Origin: an uncultured Bacteroidales bacterium
Lineage (GTDB): Bacteria > Bacteroidota > Bacteroidia > Bacteroidales > FEN-979
Length of the DNA stretch: 64,000 nucleotides
Assembly (NCBI GenBank): GCA_903916595.1
Contig: CAIWXI010000055.1
Span: 7,870-71,869 of the forward strand
Reading direction: 5' to 3'
This document shows, in pieces, positions 14,646-33,344 of the stretch. The translations under genes and the position numbers were made by a program. A model generated the notes under the pieces. It worked only from the letters and a program-made list of their open reading frames with translations. It ran no database searches and was not told the DNA's origin. Positions within the stretch are counted from its first letter, which is position 1; each line of letters starts with the position of its first letter.

Positions 14646-14699
14646 TTTTTACGATTATTTACTCCTATTGTTATTTTCTTACTTGTATTTCTTGGAGAA
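14646..14699 (+). promoter_or_regulatory. phased-TTAC conserved element, copy 3 (upstream of lipoprotein / precursor A operon)
   Basis: TTTTTACGATTATTTACTCCTATTGTTATTTTCTTACTTGTATTTCTTGGAGAA. Ungapped hand alignment to copy 1 gives about 40/54 identities. TTAC occurs at offsets 4, 14 and 34. A -7-like TTACTTTG follows at 14715-14722. Confidence 0.55.
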
Positions 14700-14784
14700 C
14701 AGGATTTGTCATTATTACTTTGTTGATGATATTAATGGAGAAATCCAGTTAAACAATATACACTTGAACCTAAAACAAAGTGAC

Positions 14785-15435
14785 ATGAAAAAAAACATTG
14801 GATTATTTATTTGCGGACTCCTCCTTTCAGCAACAATGGGGGTCGCCCAGAAACTAACTTCCGGCAGTCTGGGGGCATTAAAAGGTGAAACGACTCTGAA
14901 TGTAATGTTTGATTATTCAAACGTGACCGTTGGCAATCCGGTAAACCCCTTCATGTCAAAGAAAGGTATTACTGAAAAGGAGTATGTAGAACAAAAAACC
15001 TCAGAACTCAATGCAAAAAAACCAGGTGACGGGGACCGCTGGGCCCAGGCCTGGCAGGATGACCGTCAAAAACTTTTTCAGCCGGCTTTCCTGCAGGAAC
15101 TCAACGATAAACTTGAAAAACAAGGATTAGTCGCGAAAGAAAATGCATCCGATGCCAGGTACACGCTGGTAGTGAAAACTATTCTTGTTAATGTGGGGTT
15201 TAACATCGGGATGTCAAAAAAGGAAGCATATATCAACCTGGTGATCGATATTGTAGAAACAGCAGATCATTCAAAGGTAGCTGCTTCGGTTGAAATGAAT
15301 AATGTACTTAAAAAGGTCCAGATGTCTTACGGTGATATGACTTTCGATTTTGCAGTCGGCCAACGCCTGCAGGCATGTTATGAGCAAGCCGGCATATCCT
15401 TTGGTAAATTTCTCTCAAAAGGATTATCCAAATAA
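14785..15435 (+). CDS. secreted protein or lipoprotein of unknown function
   Basis: The track ORF starts at 14599, but its first 186 nt cover the conserved noncoding element. ATG 14785 gives the signal/lipobox-like peptide MKKNIGLFICGLLLSATMGVAQ. Confidence 0.55.
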   Translation: MKKNIGLFICGLLLSATMGVAQKLTSGSLGALKGETTLNVMFDYSNVTVGNPVNPFMSKKGITEKEYVEQKTSELNAKKPGDGDRWAQAWQDDRQKLFQPAFLQELNDKLEKQGLVAKENASDARYTLVVKTILVNVGFNIGMSKKEAYINLVIDIVETADHSKVAASVEMNNVLKKVQMSYGDMTFDFAVGQRLQACYEQAGISFGKFLSKGLSK

Positions 15436-15596
15436 GAGTTTTGCAGGTTCATGGACAGGCCGGTTATACTGACCACCTTCTGCCGATTTTGTTTTACCAC
15501 CTTACCTTATTATCAATCAATAAAATGGCATGGTCAAATTATTCCGGCGAAGGCTGGTCAATGCGAGCGTTTTTTCCAGGCATGATTAATAAACAT

Positions 15597-15917
15597 ATGA
15601 AAACAAAACAAGTCATTGAAATGCAGCTCATCGAAAAAGCGATGAAAGATCCCGATTTCAGGAAGCGGCTTCTTGAAAACCCGAAAGCAGTCATTCAGGA
15701 AATGACGGGGTTTGAACTTTCTCCATCCCTCAACCTGAGAATTCTCGAAGAGGATCCTCACACAGTGTACCTGATCCTTCCATTTATTCCGTCTCAACTA
15801 AATGAAAATGAACTGGATGAAACTGAGCTGGAAAGGATAGCAGGAGGGGGGCAATTTACAGGGTTCTCTTTTTGTCATACCTGTGGTTGTGACTCTTTTA
15901 CCCGTGAATGTGAGTAG
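15597..15917 (+). CDS. NHLP-leader RiPP/bacteriocin precursor A (core GQFTGFSFCHTCGCDSFTRECE)
   Basis: MKTKQVIEMQLIEKAMKDPDFRKRLLENPKAVIQEMTGF...TVYLILP...ELDETELERIAGG shows the nitrile-hydratase-like leader pattern ending in a double-glycine site. The track start at 15441 (TTG) looks like a spurious extension. An alternative ATG lies at 15582. Confidence 0.85.
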   Translation: MKTKQVIEMQLIEKAMKDPDFRKRLLENPKAVIQEMTGFELSPSLNLRILEEDPHTVYLILPFIPSQLNENELDETELERIAGGGQFTGFSFCHTCGCDSFTRECE

Positions 15918-15965
15918 TACATTCCAAGCTTATATTTTTATCTGAAAACTTTAAACCCAGATCAT

Positions 15966-16535
15966 ATGAAAACCAAATTCTTATTTCTTTTTATCAGTCT
16001 CAGCTGTTTGATCAGCAATTTAAAGTCTCAGGACATCCTGGTTTATAAAAACGGAGACGAAGTCCAGTCTAAAGTTATAGAGGTAACCGATGACAATATA
16101 AAATATAAAAAGTGGGGTAATTTAGACGGACCATCGTATACGGCCATTAAAAAGGACGTTTTAATGATAAAATATCAGAATGGAACAAAAGATGTATTTA
16201 ATAATCAGCCCACTCAGACTAATTCAAATACAGCTGTAACACAGAAAAAGTCTGAACCAGGAAAAATATGCTTTTATTCTTCAGATAAACGGATTGATCA
16301 GATAGATATTTACGTTTATTATTATGACGAAGCCGGAGCAAAGAAATCAAGAGTCGGTCAGTTGGATTTCTATTTCAAAGGCCGTCCCGATTGCGGTCAG
16401 GATGGAACGTATACTTTAAATCTTCCGCCGGGCGATTATGACTATTATGCTGTTGACGACGTTATTTACGAAATGAAAGGTACATTTTCAGTCATAGAAA
16501 ACCAATGTACTTTTCTGGATGTCGTCTGCAGATAA
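15966..16535 (+). CDS. secreted protein of unknown function (4 Cys in C-terminal half)
   Basis: Signal peptide MKTKFLFLFISLSCLISNLKSQ. No family recognised. It lies between precursor A and the C10 peptidase gene. Confidence 0.6.
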   Translation: MKTKFLFLFISLSCLISNLKSQDILVYKNGDEVQSKVIEVTDDNIKYKKWGNLDGPSYTAIKKDVLMIKYQNGTKDVFNNQPTQTNSNTAVTQKKSEPGKICFYSSDKRIDQIDIYVYYYDEAGAKKSRVGQLDFYFKGRPDCGQDGTYTLNLPPGDYDYYAVDDVIYEMKGTFSVIENQCTFLDVVCR

Positions 16536-16574
16536 ATATTCCAGAATAATCCCGCTAAGACCGCCTGGTCGGAA

Positions 16575-16725: not shown

Positions 16726-19329
16726 ATGAAAAAAATAATCCTGTCTCTCCTGTTTGCTGTGGTATTGATCAGCAGCGGGTTTGGAAAAACCGTTGAAGTA
16801 AACCGTGCAAAAAATGTTGCGTCAAATTACCTGGCTTCAATGCCAACCCGGTTTCCACAGGGAATTCCCGGAGGTCTGAGCCTGTGTTATACGGCTGCGG
16901 AAAACAACACCTCCGCAATGAAGGCATCCTCAGCGCCATTATATTATGTTTTTAATATAAACAGCGCCTATGGTTTTATCATTATTTCGGCGGATGATGT
17001 TGTCATTCCGGTGCTGGCTTATTCCGATGAAACCAGTTTCTCTGCTGATAACATTCCACCTAATGTTGCAGGCTGGCTGAAGGGGTATGAGAATGAGATC
17101 AGTCATGCCATCAGCACGAACCTGGATCAGGCTCCTGAAGTTCAGTCGGAATGGACCGCCCTGGTCAAAGGCCCTCTGCAGGGCCATGCGCTTAAGTCGG
17201 CAACCGGAGTTAATGCTCTTATCACAACCATCTGGGGTCAGGACCCGTTCTATAATGATCTATGTCCGTACGATAATACCGCTGCTGAGCGGACCGTAAC
17301 CGGATGTGTTGCCACAGCTATGGCCCAGGTCATGAAATATCATGCTTATCCCACCACCGGTATCGGAAGTTATTCTTACAGCACCACCCGTTATGGAACC
17401 CTGTCGGCTAATTTCGGGGCAACGACTTATAACTGGACCGCCATGCCCAACAACGTGACCACAGCAAACACTGCCGTGGCCACCCTGATGTATCATTGCG
17501 GGGTGGGTGCCAAAATGGACTACAACGTGAGTGCCCAGGGAGGAAGTGCAGCATACGTCGTTGCTACCGACGATCCGAAATGTGCTGAAAATGCACTGAA
17601 AGACTATTTCGGTTATGCCACAACTTTGCAGGGCAAAACGAAATCAAATTACACCAACACCGAGTGGATCAACCTGCTGAAAACCGAACTTAATGCCAGC
17701 AGGCCGATGGTCTATGCAGGGGGAGCGCATTGCTTTGTCTGTGACGGTTATGATGACAGTGATAAGTTCCACTTCAACTGGGGCTGGTCGGGAAGTTACG
17801 ACGGATTTTACGCCCTTACAGCTCTGATACCGGGTGGGACCGGGACCGGCGGGGGCAACGGGAATTACACCAACGGACAGGAAGCTGTTATCGGGATTCG
17901 TAAGCCGGCTTCGGGGGGAGGCGGAGACAGGTTTTTCAAGCTTGCATTAAATGCAGCGGTCACCTGCCCATCCGACATCATCAATTACGAAGATTCCCTC
18001 TCCTTTCACACCGATATCATTAACAATGGCCAGTCGACGTTCAGCGGCGATATTTCAGCCTGTATCTTTGATACCAACGGGATCTTTATTCATGAAGTCC
18101 AGACCATCAAGGGAGTTGCACTCACCGCCGGCAGCCATTTGCCAAACGGTGCAACTTTCACAAACCCCGGGCTCACCTCCATGCTTCCCAACACGTATTT
18201 CGTGGGTATTATGTACAGGTCGGCCGATACAAACTGGATCATTGTTCCCGATACCAATGCCTTCCACAACAATAAACGGCTGGTGGTCATAAACACCAAC
18301 CCCGTCGAAATGTATGCGGCCATGAACATAAGCCCCGGCTTAAATATGACACAGGGAGATGCAGTATCGGTGCAGGCCGACATCGTCAATCACGGAACCA
18401 CCGATTTTAACGGCACTCTGGACCTTTCGATTTACGACATGGAAGGGTATTATGTGAATTTTATAGGCGAGAAGACAAATTTCACACTCCCGGTGAACCA
18501 GCACACCATGGGTCTGACATTCAGTACATCCAGCATCAATGTCCAGCCCGGCAGCTATCTTATAGCTATGCTGTTTCAGCCCGCCGGATCGTCGGACTGG
18601 CAGTTGATAGGATCCACCGCTTATGCAAACCCGGTTAAAATCCAGGTCAATGCAGTTCCTTTGATCGCCGATCAGTATGAGCCCAATAACACTTCCGCAA
18701 CGGCTTCTTCCCTGCCGGTAAGTTTCGCAACAAACCCGGCCATTATTAATACTGTTGGTGCAAACTGCCATACAGGCATAGATTTTGACTTTTACACACT
18801 TTCTCTCCCTGCAGGCTATAATTATGTTATTACCGGCAATCTGGTTGATGCTTATAATGACCCTGACCAGGTATATACCCTGGATGCACTCTGGTCGTAT
18901 TCCACCAACGGCATAACCTGGTCTGAGGCTTATGATGACACCATTCCTGATATTACAATGAACAACGGCGGAACTATTATGTTCGACGTTGAACCATATT
19001 ACCCCGGTCAGACAGGAACGTACCAGTCAGTTGTACGGATAAGCAGGAACGCGCTTGGCGTAAATGATAAAACGCAGCCTGATCAAGTCATGGTTTACCC
19101 CAATCCTGTTACTGATTACCTCTTTATTGAATCAGCAGACCAACGGGCAGTCTTATCAGGAATTAAGCTGTTCAGCGTGACTGGATGCGAGCTTACCACA
19201 GTGAACTTTACCGGGCTTAAGTCCGGCTGCAGCATGTCCGTTACTAACCTTCAGGATGGAACATATATCCTTGCAGTGACAACTGTCAGCGGCATTATTC
19301 ACAGGCAGATCGTCATCCGGAAAAAATAA
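16726..19329 (+). CDS. C10-family (streptopain/SpeB-like) cysteine peptidase with PPC domain and T9SS C-terminal sorting domain
   Basis: Catalytic Cys motif TGCVATAMAQVMKYH, His motif GGAHCFVCDGYD, and FHFNWGWSG. There is an N-terminal Spi-inhibitor-like propeptide. EPNNTSATASSL...DFDFYTL indicates a PPC domain, and the C-terminal VYPNPVTDYLFIE...GTYIL indicates a T9SS CTD. Confidence 0.85.
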   Translation: MKKIILSLLFAVVLISSGFGKTVEVNRAKNVASNYLASMPTRFPQGIPGGLSLCYTAAENNTSAMKASSAPLYYVFNINSAYGFIIISADDVVIPVLAYSDETSFSADNIPPNVAGWLKGYENEISHAISTNLDQAPEVQSEWTALVKGPLQGHALKSATGVNALITTIWGQDPFYNDLCPYDNTAAERTVTGCVATAMAQVMKYHAYPTTGIGSYSYSTTRYGTLSANFGATTYNWTAMPNNVTTANTAVATLMYHCGVGAKMDYNVSAQGGSAAYVVATDDPKCAENALKDYFGYATTLQGKTKSNYTNTEWINLLKTELNASRPMVYAGGAHCFVCDGYDDSDKFHFNWGWSGSYDGFYALTALIPGGTGTGGGNGNYTNGQEAVIGIRKPASGGGGDRFFKLALNAAVTCPSDIINYEDSLSFHTDIINNGQSTFSGDISACIFDTNGIFIHEVQTIKGVALTAGSHLPNGATFTNPGLTSMLPNTYFVGIMYRSADTNWIIVPDTNAFHNNKRLVVINTNPVEMYAAMNISPGLNMTQGDAVSVQADIVNHGTTDFNGTLDLSIYDMEGYYVNFIGEKTNFTLPVNQHTMGLTFSTSSINVQPGSYLIAMLFQPAGSSDWQLIGSTAYANPVKIQVNAVPLIADQYEPNNTSATASSLPVSFATNPAIINTVGANCHTGIDFDFYTLSLPAGYNYVITGNLVDAYNDPDQVYTLDALWSYSTNGITWSEAYDDTIPDITMNNGGTIMFDVEPYYPGQTGTYQSVVRISRNALGVNDKTQPDQVMVYPNPVTDYLFIESADQRAVLSGIKLFSVTGCELTTVNFTGLKSGCSMSVTNLQDGTYILAVTTVSGIIHRQIVIRKK

Positions 19330-19397: not shown

Positions 19398-20462
19398 ATG
19401 ACTGGAGCTCTTCAAGTTTTGATTGCTGAAGCCATCAGCAGCGCAATAGGTTTTCTGTTATGTTCAAGGGATGGGCAAGGGCTGTGGTCCGATTTCCGCC
19501 TTCCCATCGGGGAGAGCAGCGGGTGGGTCACCGGGTTTGTAGGTTCAGTCCTCGCCGGCTCTGGTGATGACCGTGTCATAAGGGAAACGAAGAATGTCTG
19601 GAATGTGTTTGCCGCTCAAAAACTGTTCACCGGTCACGGGGGATGGGGATATAACTTGCTCACCCCCGAGGATGCCGACAGCACGGTATGGGGTATCAGG
19701 TTTGCTCTAAGCCTCGGCCTGGATGGGAAGTTCAGGACAAAGGCAGCGGAGGAGTTTCTTCTGAAGCATTGGTTAACAGATGGCGGGATCACCACATACA
19801 TCCTTGAAAAAGAGCTTAGAAAACTGATTGGCGCCACGCCTGAAGAGGACATCCGGGGATGGACGGGTTCACACCTCTGTGTGACCGCCGCGGCTGCAGG
19901 GATTCCTGGGTTCAGCAGCATCCTTTTACCCTACATCCTGGAACATCAGCTTCCCGCCGGGAACTGGAATGGTTACTGGTGGAGCGATTCCGCTTATGCC
20001 ACAGCTCTTGCGACGGAGGCCCTGCTTGTCGCAGGAATGACTGAACACCGCGATGCAATTGACCGGGCGTTCTCCTGGGCGATGCAGCATTTCGGCAGGG
20101 AAGCTTTCGTTTCAAATGATATCTTTCGTGAGGGATCTCCCTTTGCCACAGCCCTGGCTTTAAAGACCCTGCTTCTTGCCGGGGAGGTTGACAAGACCCG
20201 TGAAAAATCCGGGGCGGTTGCCCGATGGCTCATCAGCCGGCAGCAGGACAACGGATCGTGGCAACCCTCTGCCTTGCTGCAGGTTCCTCCGCCTTTTATG
20301 AAAATACCGGTCGATCCCGGGAGCTGGCCTGATGGAAAAGGAGCTGCCTGGGGCACCGTGGTTACCGATCACAGGTCGTTGTTTACCACGGCAGCCGTAC
20401 TCGATTCGCTGGTGTTCTATCAGAAGACCCATTCAGGAACGATAAAGCCGGAAGCACTATGA
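19398..20462 (+). CDS. QW-repeat alpha/alpha-toroid protein (squalene-cyclase / prenyltransferase-repeat-like), single domain
   Basis: Repeats of the type a..(F/W/Y)L...Q..dG.W are present: GFLLCSRDGQGLW, YILEHQLPAGNW, RWLISRQQDNGSW and GHGGWGY. PEDADSTVWGIRFAL resembles the DxDD(T/S)A segment of class II cyclases. No signal peptide. Confidence 0.6.
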   Translation: MTGALQVLIAEAISSAIGFLLCSRDGQGLWSDFRLPIGESSGWVTGFVGSVLAGSGDDRVIRETKNVWNVFAAQKLFTGHGGWGYNLLTPEDADSTVWGIRFALSLGLDGKFRTKAAEEFLLKHWLTDGGITTYILEKELRKLIGATPEEDIRGWTGSHLCVTAAAAGIPGFSSILLPYILEHQLPAGNWNGYWWSDSAYATALATEALLVAGMTEHRDAIDRAFSWAMQHFGREAFVSNDIFREGSPFATALALKTLLLAGEVDKTREKSGAVARWLISRQQDNGSWQPSALLQVPPPFMKIPVDPGSWPDGKGAAWGTVVTDHRSLFTTAAVLDSLVFYQKTHSGTIKPEAL

Positions 20463-21526
20463 AACATTCGACCCCAGCCGAAAAGTATGCTAAACTTTAT
20501 ATCACGCAGGATCAGGTGCTTGGCGCTATGTCCGGCCGTTTCGGGCCCTTTTATCTTTCGGGTGGCGCTGCCCTCTCAAGGTATTACCTGAACCATCGCT
20601 TCACCTACGATCTGGATTTTTCAGCTAACATTTTACCCTGCTTTGAGAGAAAGGCTGCTCCTGTAGTTGACGTGCTGAAAACACAATGCCATGTTACTGA
20701 TGACGAACCAGCAGTTTACGCGCGATATTTCCACCTGTGGATACAGGGCAGCGAAAAGCTCAAGATCAGTATTTCAAACGACATTTCCGAACAATTGGGG
20801 TTGCCGTTTATGGCAGGGCAGGTTCCTGTGGATAATATGAAGAACATGCTGGTTAAAAAACTCAAAACCATTCTGGATCGTGATAACCCTAAAGATCTGT
20901 TCGATATCGTAAGTATTGCATCGGCCTACAGTTTTCATTGGGGTGATGTGTTGAAGTATGCGCAAAAGAAAGCCGTCATGGCCCAGGTGAATCTCTTATT
21001 GCAATTCAGCCGGGTTGCCTTCCGGTTTAACAGTATATGGCGCGGACGGGAACCAAAAGATCTGTTCAGCCTTTTGGGGGCTCCTCCGCCTATAGGTTTC
21101 AACAGGGTCTATCTGACTGCAAATATCGGGCGGAACGGCAGTAATTATGAAAAACCTTCTTCCACCATGGAATCCCTTTCGCGAGAGCTGCGACGTACTG
21201 CCTACAGGCTTAAAGCGATTTCAGAGTCGGATGGCCTCGCGAATGAGGCGCAGATCGCTGACATTCCTTCCTGTTTCAATCTGACACTGGGAGGGGCCTC
21301 CATAAGGATTGACCTGCCAGCGGTTTCTGTAAGGGACAAGGCCCTTAAACAATTCAGCCGGGTTCCGGCAGGACTTTACCAGGGTCTGGAATGGATGCAC
21401 TCTCCTGTTGCGGCAGAAGAACTGAAAGCGAAGTTCAAAATGATCAGGAATGATCTTTTCCTGGCCGGAGAAAATTCACTTGGCATTGGAAAAACTCCCA
21501 TTGATAAGGCCAGGCCGGGGCTATAA
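20459..21526 (+). CDS. AbiEii/DUF1814-like nucleotidyltransferase-fold protein
   Basis: N-terminal FYLSGGAALSRYYLNHRFTYDLDF fits the GG(T/A)AL...R.(S/T).D(I/L)DF pattern of AbiEii-family NTases. The start overlaps the upstream stop (ATGA at 20459-20462). Confidence 0.5.
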   Translation: MKHSTPAEKYAKLYITQDQVLGAMSGRFGPFYLSGGAALSRYYLNHRFTYDLDFSANILPCFERKAAPVVDVLKTQCHVTDDEPAVYARYFHLWIQGSEKLKISISNDISEQLGLPFMAGQVPVDNMKNMLVKKLKTILDRDNPKDLFDIVSIASAYSFHWGDVLKYAQKKAVMAQVNLLLQFSRVAFRFNSIWRGREPKDLFSLLGAPPPIGFNRVYLTANIGRNGSNYEKPSSTMESLSRELRRTAYRLKAISESDGLANEAQIADIPSCFNLTLGGASIRIDLPAVSVRDKALKQFSRVPAGLYQGLEWMHSPVAAEELKAKFKMIRNDLFLAGENSLGIGKTPIDKARPGL

Positions 21527-21568: not shown

Positions 21569-22600
21569 CTAGCGTATCATGGTTCCGAAATAGCCCTTGC
21601 ATTCAATAGGTGCATTTTCTTTGTACACAATTTTCAGGTGGTTTAGACCCCTGATATAGTTTGCCGGATAGGGAAACCTGCACTTTGTTTTTCCGCAGAA
21701 GCTCAGCAGGGCCTCCCGTTTTCCAGAGGTCACCAAATTGTCCGATTCCAGCACATCCAGCGCAGCCTCCCACCCCGGATTAAACCGGGGCTGGCTGAGA
21801 TTGTTAAAAAGCATCTCCAGGGCCAGATATGGAAGGATCTCCTTCCCTGTATTGATATTGCAGGCGAAGTAATCGAAAAGGCCGGCATATCGATCGGTCA
21901 GGAACCTGACTTTCTGAAAATCACCCGGCCAGCCGATATCCCGGAGGTAAGCTTCCAGGCGCACAGCGTTTATTTTTGTCAGCACCAGCCTCACTGCCTC
22001 CATATACCTGGGGATCATCAGACCGGTCTGGTATAAATTTGCATGTTCGGGAAGTGCATGGACGGCTGTTCTCAGACTTCCGGCCATCTCATCCGGGAAC
22101 GGAGTACCGGTAATGATCCGGTAGATTTCATCAAGGACACGGAGGGTTCCTTCAGATTGGGCTTTTCGGCCTGCTTTTTCGTCAACAATGATCCCGAAAA
22201 AAATATTCGGGCAGCGATTATACGATATTCCGTCAAAGTCAAACTCAAGCCAGACGGACCCTACCGAGACATCTAAAAGATGTCCCTGGGTATTCCATGC
22301 AATAAAAAACTTCCTTATTCTTTGCCAGAGGGGATCAGCGAGCAAATTTTCATGCAGATCCGACATTGGACTGGTACCGGCCAGTATCTTTGCCCCTTCA
22401 GTGTCTTTCCCGATCAGAAACGAAAAATCGCAGGCGGCCGCGGGCTCACCCAGCCGGCTTTCAAAGCCAAAATCGCGCGACAGGTCAAAAGGAAAAAGTG
22501 AACATAGCTCTTTCAATGAGTCCATGCAGCCACCCCCCATCAAGGTGGAATGAAGGGGGGTGGAAATGATTTCGATATGATCGGCGAAGGAAAGTTTCAT
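21569..22600 (-). CDS. 343-aa cytoplasmic orphan protein, last gene of the precursor B operon
   Basis: Long ORF with no signal peptide or TM segment. No family recognised. Strand-like segments (WLEFDFDG, HLKIVYK, ECKGYFG) vaguely recall ABBA prenyltransferase K-x-Y strands, but this is unverified. Confidence 0.6.
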   Translation of the reverse strand: MKLSFADHIEIISTPLHSTLMGGGCMDSLKELCSLFPFDLSRDFGFESRLGEPAAACDFSFLIGKDTEGAKILAGTSPMSDLHENLLADPLWQRIRKFFIAWNTQGHLLDVSVGSVWLEFDFDGISYNRCPNIFFGIIVDEKAGRKAQSEGTLRVLDEIYRIITGTPFPDEMAGSLRTAVHALPEHANLYQTGLMIPRYMEAVRLVLTKINAVRLEAYLRDIGWPGDFQKVRFLTDRYAGLFDYFACNINTGKEILPYLALEMLFNNLSQPRFNPGWEAALDVLESDNLVTSGKREALLSFCGKTKCRFPYPANYIRGLNHLKIVYKENAPIECKGYFGTMIR

Positions 22601-25054: not shown

Positions 25055-25074
25055 CCTGCAATGTGGGTTGCAGG
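25050..25074 (-). terminator. putative intrinsic terminator after the TPR-AraC gene
   Basis: Minus strand reads CCTGCA-ACCCACAT-TGCAGG followed by TTTTT, starting 7 nt after the stop codon. The 6-bp stem is short. The T-run overlaps the first TTAC of element copy 2. Confidence 0.4.
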
Positions 25075-26985: not shown

Positions 26986-27279
26986 CTAGTAAAAACACAT
27001 AGGAGAGCAGCTATAATCATTTACATAGCCTCCGGCAACTGCCTCCAGTTCTGCATCGGTCAATTCCGAGTCAACTTCAGTTGAAGCCAGACGAGGCAGC
27101 ACCAGGTATATGGTGCCCGGGTCTTCTTCGAGAATTTTCAAGGTTACTGATTCAGAAACTGCTACACCCATTTCATTAATAATTACTGCTGCCGGGTTGT
27201 CAATAAGTCTTTTTCTGAAATCCATATCTTTCAGGGACATTTCGATGAGCTTTGGTTCGATTTCTTTTCTCAGGTTCAT
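26986..27279 (-). CDS. NHLP-leader precursor C (core YVNDYSCSPMCFY)
   Basis: MNLRKEIEPKLIEMSLKDMDFRKRLIDNPAAVIINEMG...TIYLVLP...ELTDAELEAVAGG. The gene ends 18 nt before the TPR-AraC gene on the same strand. Confidence 0.85.
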   Translation of the reverse strand: MNLRKEIEPKLIEMSLKDMDFRKRLIDNPAAVIINEMGVAVSESVTLKILEEDPGTIYLVLPRLASTEVDSELTDAELEAVAGGYVNDYSCSPMCFY

Positions 27280-27394: not shown

Positions 27395-28201
27395 ATGATT
27401 GGCCGGCAGATTTTCAGAAAAACGTCGCTTGAGAAAATGATGACCCCCGAGGACCTGGATGAATTATTGCAGGTCAACCCGACCAGGACATGGCTGATGT
27501 TTGCAGGTATAGGTGTTGTTATTGCCGGGATGCTGGCCTGGGGAATCCTTGGGTCGGTAACGCAGTATGTGAAAGGATTCGGGATCATCAAGACCCGGGA
27601 GCTGCCCCGGGAGGTAGTATCGGTTTGTTCGGGGCAGGTTGATTCGATTTTCTGTAAGACCGGTGATGAGGTTGCCCAGGGCCAAAAATTGTTAATGATT
27701 CTCCAGCTGCACGAACAAACAGGTGTAACTATTTTCGCTTCCTGCCCGGGCGAAATCACCGGACTGAATGTCAGGGAAGGCACTTATGTTGAAACGGGCG
27801 CTCCAGTGCTTGAGATGATGCGAAATGAAGGCCATACCGGGACCTTTCCCGAGGTGATCTTCTTTGTGGAGGAACAGGAGGTTTCAAAGCTGAAAAAGGG
27901 GATGGTTTCCAACCTGCAAATTGATAAGGGGGGAGTGCCTCCTGAATTTTTAAATGCGGTGATCAATTTTATTGCTGATTACCCGGTTTCGAAAAATTCA
28001 ATCCAAAAATATTTTCCGGATGAGGAAATAACGAAGCAACTCAGCAACAGGGATTTCCATGAAGTCAGGGCAAGCCTGATTATCGATACGGTCGGGAAAA
28101 CGGCCCGCGCAAAGGAGGCTCTGCATTCATTAAACGGCCTATCCTGCCGCACTGTTACCACAGTGGCCCGCCGAAGTCCGGTTGCTTATCTTTTAAACTG
28201 A
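27395..28201 (+). CDS. HlyD-family membrane-fusion/adaptor protein of the NHLP bacteriocin export system, unusually short
   Basis: N-terminal TM segment (WLMFAGIGVVIAGMLAWGILG). The split lipoyl-like halves GQVDSIFCKTGDEVAQGQKLLMI and GEITGLNVREGTYVETGAPVLEM are only about 16 aa apart. It is the first gene of the exporter trio. Confidence 0.65.
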   Translation: MIGRQIFRKTSLEKMMTPEDLDELLQVNPTRTWLMFAGIGVVIAGMLAWGILGSVTQYVKGFGIIKTRELPREVVSVCSGQVDSIFCKTGDEVAQGQKLLMILQLHEQTGVTIFASCPGEITGLNVREGTYVETGAPVLEMMRNEGHTGTFPEVIFFVEEQEVSKLKKGMVSNLQIDKGGVPPEFLNAVINFIADYPVSKNSIQKYFPDEEITKQLSNRDFHEVRASLIIDTVGKTARAKEALHSLNGLSCRTVTTVARRSPVAYLLN

Positions 28202-28224
28202 TCAGGCTAATCATACTCTTCTGC

Positions 28225-30423
28225 ATGAGCTTTGAACCGATTCACTTCCTTCATTCAGTTTACTGCCGGCTTGCAGGTATAAGGCGGGTTAAAACTCCCA
28301 CGGTTCTGCAGATGGAGGCCCTGGAATGCGGGGCAGCTTCTCTGGGGATCGTATTGGCCTGCTTCGGGAAGAATGTTCCCCTCGAAAAGCTGAGGGTCGA
28401 CTGCGGTGTATCACGCGACGGGAGCTCGGCAAGCAACATCTCCAAAGCAGCAAGGAATTATGGCCTGGAAGTAAAGGCTTATAAAAAAGAGCCGGAAGAA
28501 CTTAAAAAGCTTCCTCTCCCGATGATCGTATTCTGGAATTTTTACCATTTCCTGGTTGTCGAAGGGTTTGGGAAAAACAAAGTTTACCTAAACGACCCGG
28601 CTTCCGGCCCACGTACGGTGGACTATAAAACCTTTGATGAATCCTTTACAGGAGTGGTATTGACTTTTAAACCCGGACCCGGATTTCAGAAAGAAGGCGA
28701 AAAAACGAAGTTTCTTCCCTTGTTGCTGAAATGGTTAAAAGGGTATGGAAACAGCCTGTTGTTCCTTTTCCTTGTAGGACTTGCCCTTATTATCCCCGGA
28801 CTGGCCATCCCGGTATTTTCAAAAATATTTGTCGACCAGATCCTGATCCGGCATACGGAAGCCTGGATCGTTCCCCTGCTTACAGGCATTGCAATTACTA
28901 CCATACTACGTGCTCTGTTGTCGTGGTTGCAGCAGCATAGCCTGGTACGATTGGAAATGAGTCTTTCACTTAAGAATTCCTCGAAATTTCTCTGGCACGT
29001 ACTCCATCTTCCAATGTCGTTTCATAACCAGCGGCCGGCCGGTGATATTACCATGCGGGTAAACATCAACGACCAGATTGCCATGCTGCTTTCGGGGCAG
29101 CTTGGCAATACTTTCCTGAATTTATTCATGATCGCATTTTACGCGGCCCTGATGTGTTATTACAGCCTTCCGCTGGCTGCGGTTGCCATTTTCATCTCAC
29201 TGGTAAACCTTCTCGCACTGAGATATATTTCAAGGAAACGGGTTGATTCAAATCAAAAACTCCTGCAGGATAACGGCCGTTTATTCGGGCTTTCTTCTTC
29301 AGGTTTGCAGATGATAGAGTCATTAAAAGCAACAGCTTCCGAATCGGAATTTTTCTCACGCTGGGCCGGCTACCAGGCAAAATTGCTGAACATCCAGCAG
29401 AGACTGGGGGTGCTTACCCAGACCCTGCAGGTAATCCCTGTATTTCTTACTACTCTGAGCACCCTGGTGATACTGTTTCTCGGGTCACATTATATTATCA
29501 GCGGGGTGATAACTGTGGGTACTTTTGTCGCATTCCAGTCGCTGATGGCCAGTTTTAATCAGCCTATCGTAGCCCTGGTTAACCTTGGAAGCGCACTGCA
29601 GGATGTGCAGGGAGGGCTGAAACGGATAGAGGATGTTTATAATTATCCTACAGGCCAGCCGGATGCTGATGCAACTGAATCTCAAAAAGCCGGAAAAGTT
29701 TTAAAACTGCAGGGATCGGTTGAACTTAAGGATGTGACGTTTGGTTACAGCCCGCTGGATTCGCCCCTGATCACTGGTTTTTCTCTGCACCTGAACCCGG
29801 GATCCAGGGTCGCTATCGTTGGAAGGACCGGTTGCGGAAAGTCGACCATGGCCAACCTGGTCAGCGGATTGTATGATCCATGGAAAGGAGAGATACTGTT
29901 TGACGGCAAACCCAGAGAGAGCTTTTCTCATACTACCCTGAATAATTCCATTTCCATGGTCGATCAGAACCTCTTCCTTTTTGAAGGAACTGCCAAGGAG
30001 AATATTACTTTCTGGGATCAGACCATTGCCGACAAAGATGTAATACAGGCGGCTAAAGACGCCTGCATTCATGAAGACATTGCGGCCAGACCCGGAGCAT
30101 ATGAAAGCATGATATCCGAAAACGGGAGGAATCTGAGCGGGGGTCAGAGGCAGCGGATCGAAATTGCAAGGGCGCTTGCCACCAAACCATCTGTATTGAT
30201 ACTTGATGAGGCCACCAGTGCCCTGGATGCAAAGACAGAGCAGATGATAGATATCAATATCCGTAAAAAAGGATGCACCTGCCTCATCATCGCTCACCGC
30301 CTGAGCACGATCCGTGACTGCGACGAAATCATCGTGATGGACAGGGGGAGGATAGTGCAAAGAGGAACCCACCAGGAACTGATAATCCAGCAGGGATTAT
30401 ATAACGAACTGATCAAAGAATAA
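28225..30423 (+). CDS. bacteriocin-processing ABC transporter with N-terminal C39 peptidase domain (double-glycine leader cleavage/export)
   Basis: C39 motifs QMEALECGAASLG (Cys), NFYHFLVVEG (His) and NDPASG. There is a 6-TM ABC membrane domain, Walker A GRTGCGKST, signature LSGGQRQRIEIARAL and Walker B LILDEATSALD. Confidence 0.9.
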   Translation: MSFEPIHFLHSVYCRLAGIRRVKTPTVLQMEALECGAASLGIVLACFGKNVPLEKLRVDCGVSRDGSSASNISKAARNYGLEVKAYKKEPEELKKLPLPMIVFWNFYHFLVVEGFGKNKVYLNDPASGPRTVDYKTFDESFTGVVLTFKPGPGFQKEGEKTKFLPLLLKWLKGYGNSLLFLFLVGLALIIPGLAIPVFSKIFVDQILIRHTEAWIVPLLTGIAITTILRALLSWLQQHSLVRLEMSLSLKNSSKFLWHVLHLPMSFHNQRPAGDITMRVNINDQIAMLLSGQLGNTFLNLFMIAFYAALMCYYSLPLAAVAIFISLVNLLALRYISRKRVDSNQKLLQDNGRLFGLSSSGLQMIESLKATASESEFFSRWAGYQAKLLNIQQRLGVLTQTLQVIPVFLTTLSTLVILFLGSHYIISGVITVGTFVAFQSLMASFNQPIVALVNLGSALQDVQGGLKRIEDVYNYPTGQPDADATESQKAGKVLKLQGSVELKDVTFGYSPLDSPLITGFSLHLNPGSRVAIVGRTGCGKSTMANLVSGLYDPWKGEILFDGKPRESFSHTTLNNSISMVDQNLFLFEGTAKENITFWDQTIADKDVIQAAKDACIHEDIAARPGAYESMISENGRNLSGGQRQRIEIARALATKPSVLILDEATSALDAKTEQMIDINIRKKGCTCLIIAHRLSTIRDCDEIIVMDRGRIVQRGTHQELIIQQGLYNELIKE

Positions 30424-30434
30424 GGATAGCTGCC

Positions 30435-33344
30435 ATGCCGCAAGAACTGTTTTCTGCAACAATTCGCAACAAGGGCCAAACGGTAAAAACCGGGGGGAAC
30501 CGGTCTTTCCTGTTGAATCAGCCTGAGTATGCCTGGTATTTTGCCCATGGTTACGCAGATGTTTTTTCTGTCAGGCTCGACCATGAGCAGCCCCGTGGTT
30601 CAAGGAATTATTTTTTCTCAGCCCGCCAGGGGGAATTTCTTTTTGGCATCAGCAGCAAGCATTCGGGCGATGAACGCAGTTTGATTGCCTCTCCTTCTCC
30701 GGATGCGGAAATCATTATGATCAGTATGGATCAGGTCAAAGAGCTGTGGAGCCGGACTGAGTTTACTGCAATTTTTACAGGGATACTCGAACTCTGGATC
30801 ACCCATCTTTCCCTGGCTATTTCAAAAGATATCAACCCGCGTACTGATCTGCTGCTTGAAGCCCCCATTCCGGCCAGCGTGGATGCCCATCTGAAGATCC
30901 GCTCAAGAAAAGGAATTGTATGGACGGAATTCTTTTCCGGAAACGCCTTATTTCTGGGGATGAAGGAAATCATGGAATCCGGGGAACACCTGAAATTCCC
31001 GGTTTCACAGGATTCCTGGCTGCAGACCATGGAAACTTCTGAAATCAGGTCATTTCGAACAGCCGACATTTACTTGCTGGGAGAGCTCTGGAATTACCTT
31101 GAAAATTTTTATGCAGTAATTTTTTTCTGTGAATTTTTCATTACCCGTCTCACTGCTGTTGACGACTTCAACCGTTTGAACGAGAAAACTGTTCATAGCT
31201 CAAGGGTACGTTCCTCGGCTCTCCTTAACATTGCCTCGGTTATCAATGAGAAGCTGAGAAAATCATATATTGATACCGGTTACGATGCATTGCTCACCTC
31301 ATGCCGCATTATTGCTGATTATTCGGGGATTACCATCACCACACCCAAACAACCCAGAAGTGAGGAAGCCCCTCCGCTGAGCCTGAACGACATTTTGCGT
31401 TCTTCAAGGTTCAGGGCCCGAAAAGTAAAACTCACAGGCAAGTGGTGGGAAGAGGACCATGGACCCTTGCTGGCCTGGACAACAGATGAAAATCTTCCTG
31501 TTGCCCTGATCCCGAAATCTCCCGGGAAATATGAATATATCAGCCCGGGTGAAAATATAAGACAGCCTTTAACTTCGAAAACAGCCCTGCAGCTGGCCCC
31601 GGAAGCTCAACAGTTTTATCGTCCTTTCCCCGATCAGCCCATCGGAGGCATGCATCTGATCAGGTTTGGGCTGAAGAACTGCTTCCGGGATATCCTTCTC
31701 GTCATCTTGATGGGACTGGCAGGCGGCTTCCTCGCCTTACTTATCCCGGTGTTGACGGGAAACATCTTTGATGCTGTAATCCCCCAATCCGACTACCGGC
31801 AGTTATACGTTTTTTCGATGGTCATCTTTTTCAGCATTGTCGCTATTTCCCTGTTTCAGATGGTGAGGAGTTTCGCGATGATCAGGATAGAAACAAAGCT
31901 CGATTTTTCGCTGCAATCGGCATTATGGGACCGCCTGCTCAATTTACCCGTTTCCTTTTTCAGGAGATACCAGGCCGGCGATCTTGCTAATAAGGCAAAC
32001 GGCCTGATGATGCTGCGTAAAACACTTTCCGATACCGTGATTTACAGTGTGCTTGGCGCAGTTTTCATGCTGTTTAACTTTTTCCTGCTGTTTTTTTATG
32101 ACGTTGCTCTTACCTTGTATGTTTTTCTTTTCCTGGTCATATCCCTTCTCTTTATTTTTTATTTCGGGAAGCAGATCCAAAAGCGTCAGCAAATTATCAC
32201 TCAGCTTCAGGGCAGGATTTTCGGTATGCTGATCCAGTTTTTATCCAGTATCTCCAAGATAAAGATCGCCGGCGCTGAAGTCCATGCCTTTTCGCAATGG
32301 GCCATGAAGGTCTCGGTGGTTAAAAGACAAACCTATGAAGTAAGAAAGCTGTTTAAGGTGGTCTCCGTGTTTTCGATGGTAGTGCCCCTTGTAATCACAC
32401 TGTTTGTTATTGCGGTTATTTCCTGGCAGCCGCCAGATACACTCTCGACCGGTCAGTTCATGGGATTTTACACCGCATTGACTATGACCGTTGTATCGTT
32501 CTTTCAGTTTGGAATGGCCGTCATTTCGTTTTTCATGGCAATTCCGATGCTCGAAAGCATACGCCCGATACTGGAGGCTCTGCCCGAGAATATCGCCCTG
32601 AAGGAGGACATCAGGGAACTTTCAGGCGAAATTGAGGTTGCCAATGTCAGTTTCAGATACCAGCCTGATTTGCCCTTAGTGCTTCATGATGTTTCTTTAC
32701 ACATCCGGCCCGGAGAATTCGTAGCTATTGCTGGAGCTTCAGGTTCAGGAAAATCGACTTTATTACGCTTGCTGCTTGGCTTTGAATCACCCGAGGTCGG
32801 CTCAATATTTTATGACCGCCAGGATATTTCAGCATTTGATCCTGCATCAATAAGAAGGCAGGCCGGAACAGTGCTTCAGCAATCGCAGCTGTCGGTGGGG
32901 ACCCTGCTCACCAATATCACCGGCATGGGTAACGCGACGTTTGAAGATGCGTGGGAAGCAGCCCGGAATGTGGGCCTCGACGAGGACATCAAGCAAATGC
33001 CGATGGGGATGCACACCATGATTACAGGGGGATTGAGCACTATTTCAGGCGGTCAGTGTCAGCGCATCATGATCGCCCGGGCTATCGTGAACAAGCCCCG
33101 TATACTGTTCTTTGATGAAGCTACCAGCGCACTCGATAATAAAACCCAGAATATCGTCAGTAAAAGCCTTGAAACGCTCCAGGCCACGAGGGTGGTTATC
33201 GCCCATCGTCTGACTACGGTTCAGCATGCCGACCGGATTTACCTGATGGAACATGGAAGTATCGAAGAATCGGGAACCTATGAAGATCTGCTCAGAAAAG
33301 GCGGAAAATTCGCTGAACTGGTAAAGCGGCAGATGCTTGAATAA
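30435..33344 (+). CDS. second ABC permease/ATPase of the NHLP export system, with ~400-aa non-peptidase N-terminal extension
   Basis: Walker A GASGSGKST, signature ISGGQCQRIMIARAI and Walker B LFFDEATSALD. There is a TM domain. The N-terminal region lacks the C39 Cys motif, and as I recall such paralogues are described as cNMP-binding-like. Confidence 0.85.
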   Translation: MPQELFSATIRNKGQTVKTGGNRSFLLNQPEYAWYFAHGYADVFSVRLDHEQPRGSRNYFFSARQGEFLFGISSKHSGDERSLIASPSPDAEIIMISMDQVKELWSRTEFTAIFTGILELWITHLSLAISKDINPRTDLLLEAPIPASVDAHLKIRSRKGIVWTEFFSGNALFLGMKEIMESGEHLKFPVSQDSWLQTMETSEIRSFRTADIYLLGELWNYLENFYAVIFFCEFFITRLTAVDDFNRLNEKTVHSSRVRSSALLNIASVINEKLRKSYIDTGYDALLTSCRIIADYSGITITTPKQPRSEEAPPLSLNDILRSSRFRARKVKLTGKWWEEDHGPLLAWTTDENLPVALIPKSPGKYEYISPGENIRQPLTSKTALQLAPEAQQFYRPFPDQPIGGMHLIRFGLKNCFRDILLVILMGLAGGFLALLIPVLTGNIFDAVIPQSDYRQLYVFSMVIFFSIVAISLFQMVRSFAMIRIETKLDFSLQSALWDRLLNLPVSFFRRYQAGDLANKANGLMMLRKTLSDTVIYSVLGAVFMLFNFFLLFFYDVALTLYVFLFLVISLLFIFYFGKQIQKRQQIITQLQGRIFGMLIQFLSSISKIKIAGAEVHAFSQWAMKVSVVKRQTYEVRKLFKVVSVFSMVVPLVITLFVIAVISWQPPDTLSTGQFMGFYTALTMTVVSFFQFGMAVISFFMAIPMLESIRPILEALPENIALKEDIRELSGEIEVANVSFRYQPDLPLVLHDVSLHIRPGEFVAIAGASGSGKSTLLRLLLGFESPEVGSIFYDRQDISAFDPASIRRQAGTVLQQSQLSVGTLLTNITGMGNATFEDAWEAARNVGLDEDIKQMPMGMHTMITGGLSTISGGQCQRIMIARAIVNKPRILFFDEATSALDNKTQNIVSKSLETLQATRVVIAHRLTTVQHADRIYLMEHGSIEESGTYEDLLRKGGKFAELVKRQMLE

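Follow-up and report, generated by a model that had tools for sequence, protein, structure and literature searches.

The window considered here, the whole stretch of 64 kb that was analysed, comes from an uncultured freshwater Bacteroidales, and its NHLP locus comprises three NHLP-leader precursors together with an NHLP export cassette. The genes that matter for what follows, some of them putatively co-operonic to judge by spacing and strand, are these:

14785-15435, + strand, predicted lipoprotein or secreted protein, 216 aa (gene-caller start at an internal ATG; no Pfam match)
15597-15917, + strand, NHLP precursor 1 (TIGR03793 leader_NHLP, 76.5 bits; leader end IAGG)
15966-16535, + strand, small secreted protein, 189 aa (N-terminal signal-like sequence)
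16726-19329, + strand, C10 cysteine peptidase bearing an I69 inhibitor-like prodomain and, C-terminally, a T9SS sorting domain (Pfam)
19398-20462, + strand, predicted MstE-type monodomain class II terpene cyclase, 354 aa (phmmer, AF2, Foldseek)
20459-21526, + strand, AbiEii/DUF1814-type nucleotidyltransferase (NTase), 355 aa (PF08843; 4-bp overlap with the cyclase gene)
21569-22600, - strand, predicted ABBA-fold (PT-barrel) peptide prenyltransferase (PT), 343 aa (AF2 and Foldseek), directly downstream of precursor 2
22643-22930, - strand, NHLP precursor 2 (TIGR03793 leader_NHLP, 83.8 bits; leader end VAGG)
22960-24918, - strand, T9SS cargo protein, 652 aa (Por_Secre_tail 45.8 bits)
25081-26967, - strand, membrane-spanning TPR/AraC-type HTH regulator (TPR_12 141 bits, HTH_18 58.5 bits)
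26986-27279, - strand, NHLP precursor 3 (TIGR03793 leader_NHLP, 78.2 bits; leader end VAGG)
27395-28201, + strand, periplasmic adaptor, HlyD-like but short at 268 aa (TIGR03794 94 bits, under its cut-off of 156)
28225-30423, + strand, NHLP-family C39 peptidase/permease/ATPase (TIGR03796 1054 bits, cut-off 853; Peptidase_C39 128 bits)
30435-33344, + strand, second NHLP export ABC permease/ATPase (TIGR03797 826 bits, cut-off 709, residues 284-967)

The identity of the precursors and of the exporter is directly supported. All three precursors lie where the original prediction had placed them, score above the TIGR03793 cut-off of 50.9 bits and have leaders ending in AGG, followed by mutually unrelated cores. 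That of precursor 1, GQFTGFSFCHTCGCDSFTRECE, has four Cys, five Ser/Thr and no Trp; that of precursor 2, TGWGGPGQGS, has a single Trp and no Cys; that of precursor 3, YVNDYSCSPMCFY, has two Cys, two Ser and no Trp. The exporter trio was likewise recognised correctly, with both ABC genes above their cut-offs. Its adaptor covers 268 aa as against the 421 positions of the TIGR03794 model and has a single transmembrane segment (32-57); as the same length recurs in all relatives examined, we consider it a lineage-specific short adaptor, not a broken gene. The second ABC exporter has an unannotated N-terminal extension of 283 aa. By family, the C39 exporter is expected to cleave after Gly-Gly and to export the peptide.

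It had also been proposed that no canonical maturase is encoded in these 64 kb, and this stands. Pfam scans of nearly all large open reading frames of the window, the four upstream genes at 10121-14487 being covered through precomputed Pfam annotation, returned no YcaO, LanM, LanB, LanC or radical-SAM domain, and tblastn of the 64 kb with four related LanM proteins found neither a LanM nor a remnant of one (best E = 0.3). Relatives are a different matter: a LanM lies within 10 kb at 19 of 26 non-redundant PT loci, among them L012, which is syntenic, and L014 and L015, the closest relatives; LanM proteins of relatives are about 1,090-1,100 aa long, with DUF4135 and LANC_like domains. The original prediction had named a co-occurring LanM as what would refute a novel chemistry; such a gene does accompany most of the related loci and is missing from the window.

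What was described as a 343-aa orphan is, by its modelled structure, an ABBA-fold prenyltransferase. The AF2 model (pLDDT 95.1, pTM 0.92) displays five beta-beta-alpha-alpha repeats, and the top 41 Foldseek matches in the PDB consist entirely of ABBA/DMATS prenyltransferases, with a probability of at least 0.9 for 39; alignment to the solved enzymes (TM about 0.5, rmsd 7-9 A, 9-14% identity) denotes likeness at the level of the fold only. Along the strands the invariant residues are found at alternating positions (W117/E119/D121, H321/K323, K335/Y337, to which R198 and R204 must be added), as expected in the model if they line the barrel. The family counts 3,931 representatives and is without a Pfam model. 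An NHLP precursor is directly upstream of the PT gene at 14 of the 26 non-redundant loci and directly downstream at five more, and in some relatives the PT gene overlaps the precursor that precedes it.

The neighbouring protein, flagged for its QW repeats and squalene-cyclase likeness, a resemblance with which Pfam agrees, appears from sequence and model to be an MstE-type terpene cyclase. It matches MstE over its full length (phmmer, E = 1e-61), and its AF2 model (pLDDT 94.9) superposes on that enzyme with TM 0.87-0.92 and rmsd 2.0-2.4 A. The DxD proton-donor motif, D92-A-D94, is intact and aligned with the D-A-D of MstE, in which DxD reportedly stands in for DxDD (PMC12324236); among homologues D92 is invariant and D94 at least 90% conserved. 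The cyclase is present at 9 of the 26 non-redundant PT loci. The two families also meet in a single polypeptide: P0192 of Nostoc is a fusion of a PT domain (33-373) with a cyclase domain (398-724), the window PT being 32% identical to its N-terminal half (E = 2e-51) and the window cyclase 40% identical to its C-terminal half. Six other such fusions, N-terminally truncated, were found. The architecture of P0192 matches that published for NctPC, to which we liken it without equating the two; in review summaries NctPC is a fused enzyme that attaches a C20 chain onto Trp and then cyclises the isoprenoid (PMC13290415). Among relatives in which PT and cyclase genes remain linked to NHLP precursors, PT identity ranges from 41 to 83%.

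Precursor 2, located 43 bp upstream of the PT gene, is most likely the substrate of both enzymes. The L014 PT is 83% identical to that of the window, yet the core TGWGGPGQGS is identical there, while the leaders differ by about 30%; the corresponding core of L015 reads TANWGGPGQGT. In the three closest orthologous loci the PT-proximal cores have Trp at position 3, and in the cores of this family Trp is enriched about fourfold (4.7% of residues in the cores, as opposed to 0% in the leaders and 1.2% in the long open reading frames of the window). By contrast, precursors 1 and 3, with cores that look like those of lanthipeptides and no LanM to act on them, count against the reading that PT and cyclase are the maturases.

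The NTase is more puzzling. Like the AbiEii/DUF1814 toxins of type IV toxin-antitoxin systems, it passes the PF08843 cut-off (40.1 bits against 22.5), and the GG...DxD motif, invariant across 13 homologues, suggests that it is catalytically intact. Is it then a defence or toxin gene sitting in the cluster by chance, with no part in biosynthesis? Its only family matches are AbiEii toxin models (those of PADLOC giving at most 37 bits), one annotation source assigns a homologue, as a component, to a viral defence system, and, judging by title or abstract, none of 11 papers naming both AbiEii and RiPP appears to concern RiPP biosynthesis. We nevertheless find a chance neighbour unlikely. Unlike those toxins, the NTase has no AbiEi antitoxin gene adjoining it, exceeds them in length by about 100 aa, has a C-terminal half of its own, and lies within a putative RiPP operon, in the same orientation. 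Its gene and that of the cyclase share 4 bp; the NTase lies beside or near the cyclase in L007, L010, L012, L014 and L015, and the order cyclase-then-NTase is kept in four lineages, with NTases 67-96% identical to that of the window. Its close subfamily (15 clusters) is confined to the same Bacteroidota lineage, and more distant copies in L007 and L031 (28-31% identity) likewise adjoin NHLP precursors. All three of the neighbours rightly flagged at the outset as candidates, cyclase, NTase and PT, are thus linked to NHLP precursors in other Bacteroidota, and all three are devoid of signal peptides.

From Pfam and hydropathy, the regulator starts with a signal or anchor, followed by TPR repeats, a transmembrane helix (433-460) and a C-terminal HTH; the order regulator-precursor-PT is kept in L007, L010 and L015, and in L014 an oppositely oriented exporter trio sits between the regulator-proximal precursor and the PT. 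The C10 peptidase with its T9SS domain and the second T9SS cargo had been rightly identified (Peptidase_C10 201, Inhibitor_I69 75, Por_Secre_tail 41 bits for the former), and a coordinated extracellular system had been read into their presence. This tie proves weak. Only in the four closest lineages do the C10 peptidase and the lipoprotein accompany the cluster: among related loci the peptidase appears solely in L010, L014 and L015, where lipoprotein homologues adjoin it. The lipoprotein, the longest reading frame of which begins at 14599, is a conserved neighbour of the peptidase and at most a candidate member of the peptide pathway. The 652-aa cargo has no homologue at any related locus outside the window species, and its gene appears to have been inserted there between the regulator and precursor 2. 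The 189-aa secreted protein has neither a Pfam match nor a homologue at related loci.

Taken together, we consider it probable that this is a RiPP gene cluster with two stand-alone maturases, an ABBA-fold PT and an MstE-type class II terpene cyclase, the product being most likely a peptide that bears a cyclised lipid, a chemistry first described in 2024 by Hubrich et al. in Chem, according to review summaries (PMC13290415, PMC12715784). In the scheme that follows we infer the acceptor residue, the length of the prenyl chain, the order of the steps, cyclisation on the peptide and any role of the NTase. The NHLP-leader precursors would be synthesised in the cytoplasm, where the PT would move an isoprenyl chain from a prenyl diphosphate onto an aromatic side chain, most likely Trp3 of TGWGGPGQGS. 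The DxD aspartate of the cyclase would then protonate the distal double bond, and the chain would close into a terpene of one or more rings. The NTase, putatively co-transcribed with the cyclase, might perform or assist some further step, and the C39-ABC/ABC/HlyD trio would cleave behind Gly-Gly and export the product. Weighing against this scheme, no prenyl diphosphate synthase was found in the window beyond one UppS-type cis-prenyltransferase (37200-37886), which is probably a housekeeping enzyme. The parent family of clusters in Bacteroidota normally includes a LanM, which the window copy has either lost or retains elsewhere in the genome.

This last point invites the view of an ordinary class II lanthipeptide cluster, with a LanM encoded elsewhere and acting in trans, and with PT and cyclase as mere tailoring enzymes. 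ProcM does work in trans on scattered prochlorosin precursors. Since most relatives have a LanM that the window lacks, such an arrangement is conceivable for precursors 1 and 3, the cores of which are rich in Ser/Thr and Cys; L009 and L022 each harbour a second locus of the form exporter-PT2-LanM2, and L010 has a PT/cyclase cluster without LanM, the contig of which apparently includes a LanM locus as well. Against it, 64 kb contain neither the gene nor its remnant, and precursor 2 cannot form a lanthionine because it has no Cys. We regard it as a serious contender, somewhat short of an even chance. It concerns mainly precursors 1 and 3 and, as regards precursor 2, can hold alongside the best explanation. 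The same distribution of LanM could also mean that the window copy is a decaying remnant, non-functional since LanM was lost and with its other genes on their way to becoming pseudogenes: the NTase is already down to 177 aa in the L010 lineage, and gene order is rearranged with respect to L014 and L015. Yet every gene in the window is full length and intact, catalytic motifs are kept in PT, cyclase, NTase and C39 domain, 181 blocks of the sequence collection index the very same NTase protein, the whole locus being unchanged in the contigs examined, and L014 shares the precursor 2 core despite its divergent leader. Decay thus seems improbable.

The original prediction had favoured peptides that are unmodified, joined by disulfides only, or matured by a chemistry never tied to RiPPs. 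The want of a canonical maturase in the window speaks for it, and with four and two Cys, precursors 1 and 3 could form disulfides after export. We find it very improbable nonetheless, at least for precursor 2, because two adjoining genes are identifiable as RiPP-type maturases and their chemistry, prenylation followed by cyclisation, is already linked to RiPPs through the fused NctPC, as summarised in reviews (PMC13290415, PMC12715784). The PT-cyclase fusion fits that published architecture, and PT and cyclase stay with NHLP precursors across divergent relatives. The observation behind the prediction was hence sound, and its interpretation only partly so, two of the three flagged neighbours being recognisable maturases. 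Scarcely credible, finally, is the notion that the peptide genes are bystanders and that PT and cyclase, like MstE with its prenylated benzoate, build a meroterpenoid that is a small molecule. The one biochemically characterised stand-alone relative of the cyclase, MstE, does use a small aromatic meroterpenoid (PMC12324236), but the PT directly follows, and at times overlaps, an NHLP precursor at most loci, the cores are enriched in Trp, the window has no genes for a pathway to an aromatic small-molecule acceptor, and fused relatives are described in review summaries as peptide maturases (PMC13290415).

How does a prenylating and cyclising locus compare with known systems? With NHLP/prochlorosin-type class II lanthipeptide clusters it shares the leader family and both ABC exporters above cut-offs, in the three-gene export cassette of Haft (TIGR03794, 03796 and 03797, with leader TIGR03793), as well as the LanM of its relatives; it departs from them by having no LanM itself, a short HlyD below cut-off, and the additional PT, cyclase and NTase. 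Leader-dependent prenyltransferases are known from LanM clusters (PMC13290415, PMC12715784). MppC of Moorena producens, compared here by description alone, comes from a class II lanthipeptide cluster and is a soluble PT of the alpha-beta-beta-alpha kind. It modifies Trp and requires a long Nif11/NHLP-type leader but, unlike the window system, it geranylates a LanM-cyclised core, with no terpene cyclase (PMC12715784). MstE, the Scytonema merosterolic acid synthase (PDB 6SBB-6SBG), is like the window cyclase a monodomain class II enzyme of about 350 aa with a DxD motif (33-35% identity in a structure-based alignment, TM about 0.9); the geranylgeranyl chain that it cyclises is borne by a small dihydroxybenzoate, whereas the prenyl carrier in the window would be a peptide.

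ComQXPA of Bacillus also places a short peptide with one essential Trp beside a prenyltransferase and a membrane-bound sensor or regulator. ComQ prenylates an internal Trp (PMC13290415). However, ComQ has a trans-IDS-like fold, not ABBA, its system relies on a sensor histidine kinase instead of a TPR-AraC protein, and ComX has no NHLP leader, C39 exporter or terpene cyclase; to ascribe a ComQXPA-like function to the window locus is speculation by analogy. With NctPC, compared through review summaries, the locus has in common the two catalytic modules, as the identities to Nostoc P0192 illustrate, a core with Trp, a leader of the NHLP/Nif11 kind that is long and structured, and a LanM in most relatives. 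It differs in that its host is a Bacteroidales and not a cyanobacterium, the window is without LanM, the probable substrate is a linear, Cys-free core of ten residues, the modules are separate genes on opposite strands, and a conserved AbiEii-type NTase stands beside the cyclase.

The cluster encodes a split version of the prenyltransferase/terpene-cyclase maturase of RiPPs, of which NctPC is the fused form (Hubrich et al., 2024). The original prediction had seen there a peptide locus with its own exporter and no recognisable canonical maturase. Its account of precursors and exporter is confirmed and its interpretation supported in part; the cluster is not maturase-less, however, as it encodes both a prenyltransferase (PT) and a terpene cyclase. 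The features of concern are the following.

15597-15917, plus strand: precursor 1, with an NHLP leader
19398-20462, plus strand: the 'QW protein', a terpene cyclase
20459-21526, plus strand: AbiEii-type nucleotidyltransferase (NTase)
21569-22600, minus strand: the former orphan, a PT
22643-22930, minus strand: precursor 2, with an NHLP leader
25081-26967, minus strand: regulator, with TPR repeats and an AraC-type HTH
26986-27279, minus strand: precursor 3, with an NHLP leader
27395-28201: HlyD-like protein, first gene of the exporter trio
28225-30423: C39 peptidase-ABC protein (ABC1)
30435-33344: second ABC protein

The three precursors score 76.5, 83.8 and 78.2 bits, respectively, against the NHLP-leader model TIGR03793 (cut-off 50.9), the alignments running from model position 1 or 2 to position 77, that is, over the whole leader model of about 77 positions. 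Their leaders end in IAGG (precursor 1) or VAGG (precursors 2 and 3), a cleavage motif of the Gly-Gly type. The cores that follow are mutually unrelated: 22 residues in precursor 1, GQFTGFSFCHTCGCDSFTRECE; 10 in precursor 2, TGWGGPGQGS; and 13 in precursor 3, YVNDYSCSPMCFY. Three NHLP-leader precursors with unrelated cores is what had been proposed, and this is borne out. The parallel drawn between the exporter trio and the NHLP/NHLM transport cassette of Haft et al. stands for its two ABC genes: ABC1 reaches 1054 bits with TIGR03796 (cut-off 853) and 128 bits with Peptidase_C39, the second ABC 826 bits with TIGR03797 (cut-off 709). It does not extend to the HlyD-like gene, which stays below the TIGR03794 cut-off (94.3 against 156.2 bits; 268 aa against 421 model positions). 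This 268-aa form is kept in every relative examined, and is therefore a lineage-specific version of the adaptor. The second ABC begins with an extension of 283 aa (30435-31283, plus strand) that precedes its TIGR03797 match and is devoid of Pfam domains; the total length of the protein is about the same in all relatives (968-969 aa).

The 343-aa orphan is a PRENYLTRANSFERASE. Matches were absent in Pfam, NCBIfam and PADLOC, and a sequence-profile search of its family against the PDB returned nothing: the fold search alone was informative. The AlphaFold2 model, built from an alignment of 45 homologues, is of high confidence (pLDDT 95.1, pTM 0.92), and its secondary structure comprises five beta-beta-alpha-alpha repeats, which fits the ABBA (PT-barrel) fold. 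With this model as a query, every one of the top 41 matches that Foldseek gives in the PDB is an ABBA aromatic prenyltransferase, 39 of them at a probability of at least 0.9. They include 5-DMATS, NphB/Orf2, PriB, IptA, FgaPT2 and CloQ, together with the RiPP enzymes PatF, PirF and LimF. The likeness to solved ABBA enzymes is at the level of the fold only (TM about 0.5, identity 9-14%). Along the strands, invariant residues take every other position (W117/E119/D121, H321/K323, K335/Y337) and would, in the model, line the barrel; among the invariant residues on strands, the basic and aromatic ones R198, R204, K323, K335 and Y337 are consistent with a predicted binding of diphosphate. The family is large. 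At E <= 1e-3 a full-database profile search retrieved 3,931 representative clusters; the stricter E <= 1e-30 still leaves 1,380. In some members a further domain for natural-product tailoring is fused: a 2OG-Fe(II) oxygenase (P0199, P0200, P0215), a methyltransferase (P0311) or a sulfotransferase (P0302); scanned with HMMs for the NTase and for the NHLP leader, the family proteins showed no fusion to either. Seven others (P0211, P0228, P0230, P0239, P0277, P0310, P0321) carry an N-terminal domain of some 330-350 aa that is neither cyclase nor NTase.

The QW protein belongs to the monodomain class II terpene cyclases of the MstE type. A single-sequence search aligns it over its full length with the Scytonema enzyme MstE (E = 1e-61, residues 10-339 against 25-361), and its single domain of 354 aa has the size of MstE-type proteins (about 350 aa). 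Its model (pLDDT 94.9) superposes on the (alpha/alpha)6-barrel of MstE with a TM of 0.87-0.92 and an rmsd of 2.0-2.4 Å. Among 49 homologues D92 is invariant and D94 at least 90% conserved, this pair being aligned to the D-A-D of MstE. According to PMC12324236, MstE uses DxD in place of the canonical DxDD for alkene protonation, and acts on a C20 isoprenoid chain borne by an aromatic head group. Another view, in which the protein would be a lanthionine cyclase of the LanC kind and the NTase would activate Ser/Thr ahead of dehydration, was dropped because of the full-length MstE match and the DxD motif.

What links the two enzymes is gene fusion. Six longer homologues of the cyclase, N-terminally truncated, begin with a match to the PT-family profile (E between 1e-10 and 5e-33), directly followed by the cyclase domain. 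Complete fusions are found in several Nostoc species: P0192 and its cluster mates have a PT domain at residues 33-373 and a cyclase domain at 398-724, with an identity in P0192 of 32% (E = 2e-51) to the PT and of 40% (E = 8e-70) to the cyclase of the window. In the window the two are encoded by separate genes on opposite strands. Fusion of PT and cyclase is described as common among NctPC-type enzymes, not universal. The signature of such systems, a PT and a class II cyclase, both homologous to those of the fusions, encoded with a RiPP precursor, is present in the window. The Hubrich study is said to predict modifications of this kind for proteusin (NHLP), Nif11 and lasso peptides. The first report of a terpene attached to a ribosomal peptide and then cyclised dates from 2024 and concerns fused enzymes of cyanobacteria. 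For NctPC, PMC13290415 describes transfer of a C20 chain to Trp and its subsequent cyclisation. MppC, the ABBA prenyltransferase of a LanM cluster, requires a long leader of the Nif11/NHLP type (PMC12715784), and the Hubrich work, as cited in that same article, places prenylation later than lanthionine formation.

This brings us to LanM, the class II lanthipeptide synthetase. Almost all large ORFs of the 64 kb were scanned with Pfam (with precomputed Pfam annotation for the four genes at 10121-14487) and yielded no YcaO, LanM, LanB, LanC or radical-SAM protein, and tblastn with four related LanMs at E <= 10 gave noise only (best E = 0.3) where remnants of the gene were sought in the window. 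Both agree with the earlier statement that no canonical maturase is present in this stretch. As a separate matter, an ORF of 1154 aa (999-4463, minus strand) was inspected as a hidden LanM and rejected: Pfam gives nothing for it at E <= 0.1, and BLAST shows no similarity to three related LanMs.

Comparison with relatives places this absence in context. We gathered 26 non-redundant loci with a PT homologue from metagenome contigs and GTDB genomes, and used one shared reference set to annotate them. Almost all come from Bacteroidota MAGs (Bacteroidales, Lentimicrobiaceae, Prolixibacteraceae), and the GTDB representative genomes scanned do not include the species of the window. In 14 of the loci the PT has an NHLP precursor directly upstream, and in five more directly downstream. 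The exporter trio, whole or in part, is found in 16, the cyclase in nine and the NTase in seven. A LanM of about 1,090-1,100 aa (DUF4135 and LANC_like) stands within 10 kb in 19 of the 26, including the two closest reference genomes, L014 and L015; it is also present in L012, which shares the chromosomal site of the window's cluster, behind the same HK/FIST/YkuD/hydrolase genes. As for the seven loci without LanM, the contig ends near the PT in four (L020, L023, L028, L029); L019 is a contig of 12.7 kb, with only some 5-7 kb on each side of the PT; and L010 carries, apparently on one and the same contig, another locus of the form exporter-PT2-LanM2. The window is the sole locus of the 26 that has at least 10 kb on both sides and no LanM. 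A locus of the PT2 type was seen in one sample of a similar accession series, and cannot be tied to the window's genome. The locus of the window itself is also carried by contigs of up to 273 kb. The family is therefore best taken as class II lanthipeptide clusters with NHLP leaders, to which prenylation and, in part of the members, terpene cyclisation have been added. The cluster of the window is a LanM-less derivative of this type. A LanM that accompanies such precursors, which would speak against a chemistry new to them, is seen in relatives and not within the window.

Identity between the window and L014 is a mosaic, high in the cyclase (95%), NTase (96%) and ABC1 (93%), lower in the PT (83%), the HlyD-like protein (82%), the regulator (72%) and the C10 peptidase (66%), and gene order differs among the window's species, L014 and L015. 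This indicates frequent recombination and rearrangement inside the cluster. Another contig of 12.7 kb (L018, CAILKW010000456.1) holds at least 12 NHLP precursors with one PT, one LanM and two cyclase paralogues.

Which peptide is modified? The cores of precursors 1 and 3 contain both Ser/Thr and Cys, have no Trp and look like ordinary lanthipeptide cores. That of precursor 2, just upstream of the PT, has no Cys. Trp is the third residue of the PT-upstream core in each of the three closest orthologous loci, the window (TGWGGPGQGS), L012 (GAWTDRGDPMDS) and L010 (NMWTGVFTCIIDTC). Those of the window and L012 lack Cys, which makes lanthionine formation impossible in them. The core of precursor 2 is identical in L014 despite a difference of some 30% between leaders, and the L015 version reads TANWGGPGQGT. 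Trp amounts to 4.7% of core residues, at least one being found in 40 of 61 distinct cores; it is absent from the 5,380 residues of the leaders, and makes up 1.2% of the long ORFs of the window (stop-to-stop, more than 250 aa, all six frames). Together with Trp3, this enrichment lends support to a cyclised C15/C20 terpene that would be carried by a Trp of the mature peptide. Precursor 2 would most likely become a Trp-prenylated, terpene-cyclised peptide, which the C39-ABC system would then export. In loci with PT and LanM and without cyclase (L005, L006, L021, L025, L027, L029), most cores start with Trp or Tyr right after Gly-Gly, a hint that prenylation may there occur at the first residue of the core.

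The NTase is more enigmatic. Is it a pathway enzyme, or an unrelated toxin or defence gene that happens to lie there? It does match the AbiEii family PF08843 (40.1 bits, cut-off 22.5), over its first 166 residues only, and scores at most 37 bits with the PADLOC AbiEii models. No gene for an AbiEi antitoxin or regulator adjoins it: its neighbours are the cyclase, upstream with an overlap of 4 bp, and the convergent PT, downstream. In L010, L014 and L015, too, the cyclase comes first and the NTase second. The Pol-beta signature GG...DxD and some 40 further positions are invariant in 13 homologues, among which the copies of L007 and L031 are 28-31% identical, and the close subfamily comprises only 15 clusters. 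In these same two loci (5654-5974 in L007, about 8778 in L031) the NTase adjoins a precursor with a near-identical and unusual core, GDGYSI(Q/A)GCE(K/E)TYALFC(S/H), which suggests a dedicated substrate of the enzyme; the window has no equivalent core. At 11096-11629 in L010/L011 the NTase is truncated to 177 aa beside an intact cyclase and an intact PT, so that it may be dispensable. Searches against the PDB, with the single sequence or with a profile, gave coiled-coil noise and no informative relative, and none of the publications that name both AbiEii and RiPP is about RiPP biosynthesis, judging by titles and abstracts. We consider a role in the pathway probable, and keep the toxin or defence gene as a minority view that deserves to be taken seriously. 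As a pathway enzyme, this conserved NTase may be a new peptide-tailoring activity.

In the regulator a hydrophobic segment at the N-terminus is followed by TPR repeats, a strong TM helix (433-460) and, at the C-terminus, an HTH, a layout suggestive of a periplasmic sensor domain joined to a putative cytoplasmic DNA-binding domain. L007, L010 and L015 retain the succession of regulator, precursor and PT; in L014 an oppositely oriented exporter trio sits between the regulator-proximal precursor and the PT, and in the window it is a gene for a T9SS cargo of 652 aa, found in no other species, that separates the regulator from precursor 2. Right behind the regulator gene (25055-25074, minus strand) comes a terminator-like hairpin with a run of T after it, which suggests that precursor 3 and the regulator share a transcript and that the T9SS cargo, precursor 2 and the PT are on another. 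A scan for sigma-70 promoters gives no information in a Bacteroidota genome. Linkage of the C10 peptidase and the lipoprotein to the cluster is confined to the four closest lineages, and the link to T9SS is therefore recent and lineage-specific. By itself it lends no support to the coordinated extracellular system that had been read into it. According to Pfam, the upstream part of the window encodes two-component regulators, FIST and YkuD proteins, and the window also has an ABC-F protein, a TPP enzyme and a UppS-like enzyme. Downstream (about 37200-61400, minus strand) extends a long cluster for polysaccharide biosynthesis and export: a UppS-like cis-prenyltransferase, many GT2/GT4 glycosyltransferases, a deacetylase, a Wzm/Wzt ABC transporter, GDP-mannose dehydratase and epimerase, and Wzc- and Wza-like proteins.

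We may venture one step further, to a scenario that we hold to be unlikely as a whole. Precursor 2, PT, cyclase and NTase would form a LanM-independent route to a linear TGWGGPGQGS with a cyclised terpene on its Trp and perhaps, through the NTase, a nucleotidyl group as well. The product would be an extracellular signal similar to ComX rather than an antibiotic; the periplasmic TPR domain of the regulator would sense it, and the regulator would control the neighbouring T9SS-secreted proteins, the C10 protease for example. Were this true, Bacteroidota would have their first prenyl-peptide pheromone system and AbiEii-family nucleotidyltransferases their first biosynthetic role, and there would be evidence that a stand-alone PT and cyclase accept linear, non-macrocyclised NHLP substrates.

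The finding matters for genome mining and for engineering. An orphan gene beside a RiPP precursor was here identified through structure prediction and gene-fusion evidence; with a family of some 3,900 representative clusters and no Pfam model, genome-mining tools will go on labelling such clusters maturase-less. In uncultured freshwater Bacteroidales the chemistry of prenylation and terpene cyclisation is probably encoded by separate small soluble enzymes, and these, being separate, lend themselves more readily to expression and to free combination for the lipidation of peptides. The apparent substrate, a linear Cys-less core of ten residues, suggests that PT and cyclase need no prior lanthionine ring, which would widen their use further. 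Compared with known systems, that of the window differs in its separate genes, its Bacteroidales host, the absence of LanM, a linear core without Cys and a conserved NTase of the AbiEii type.
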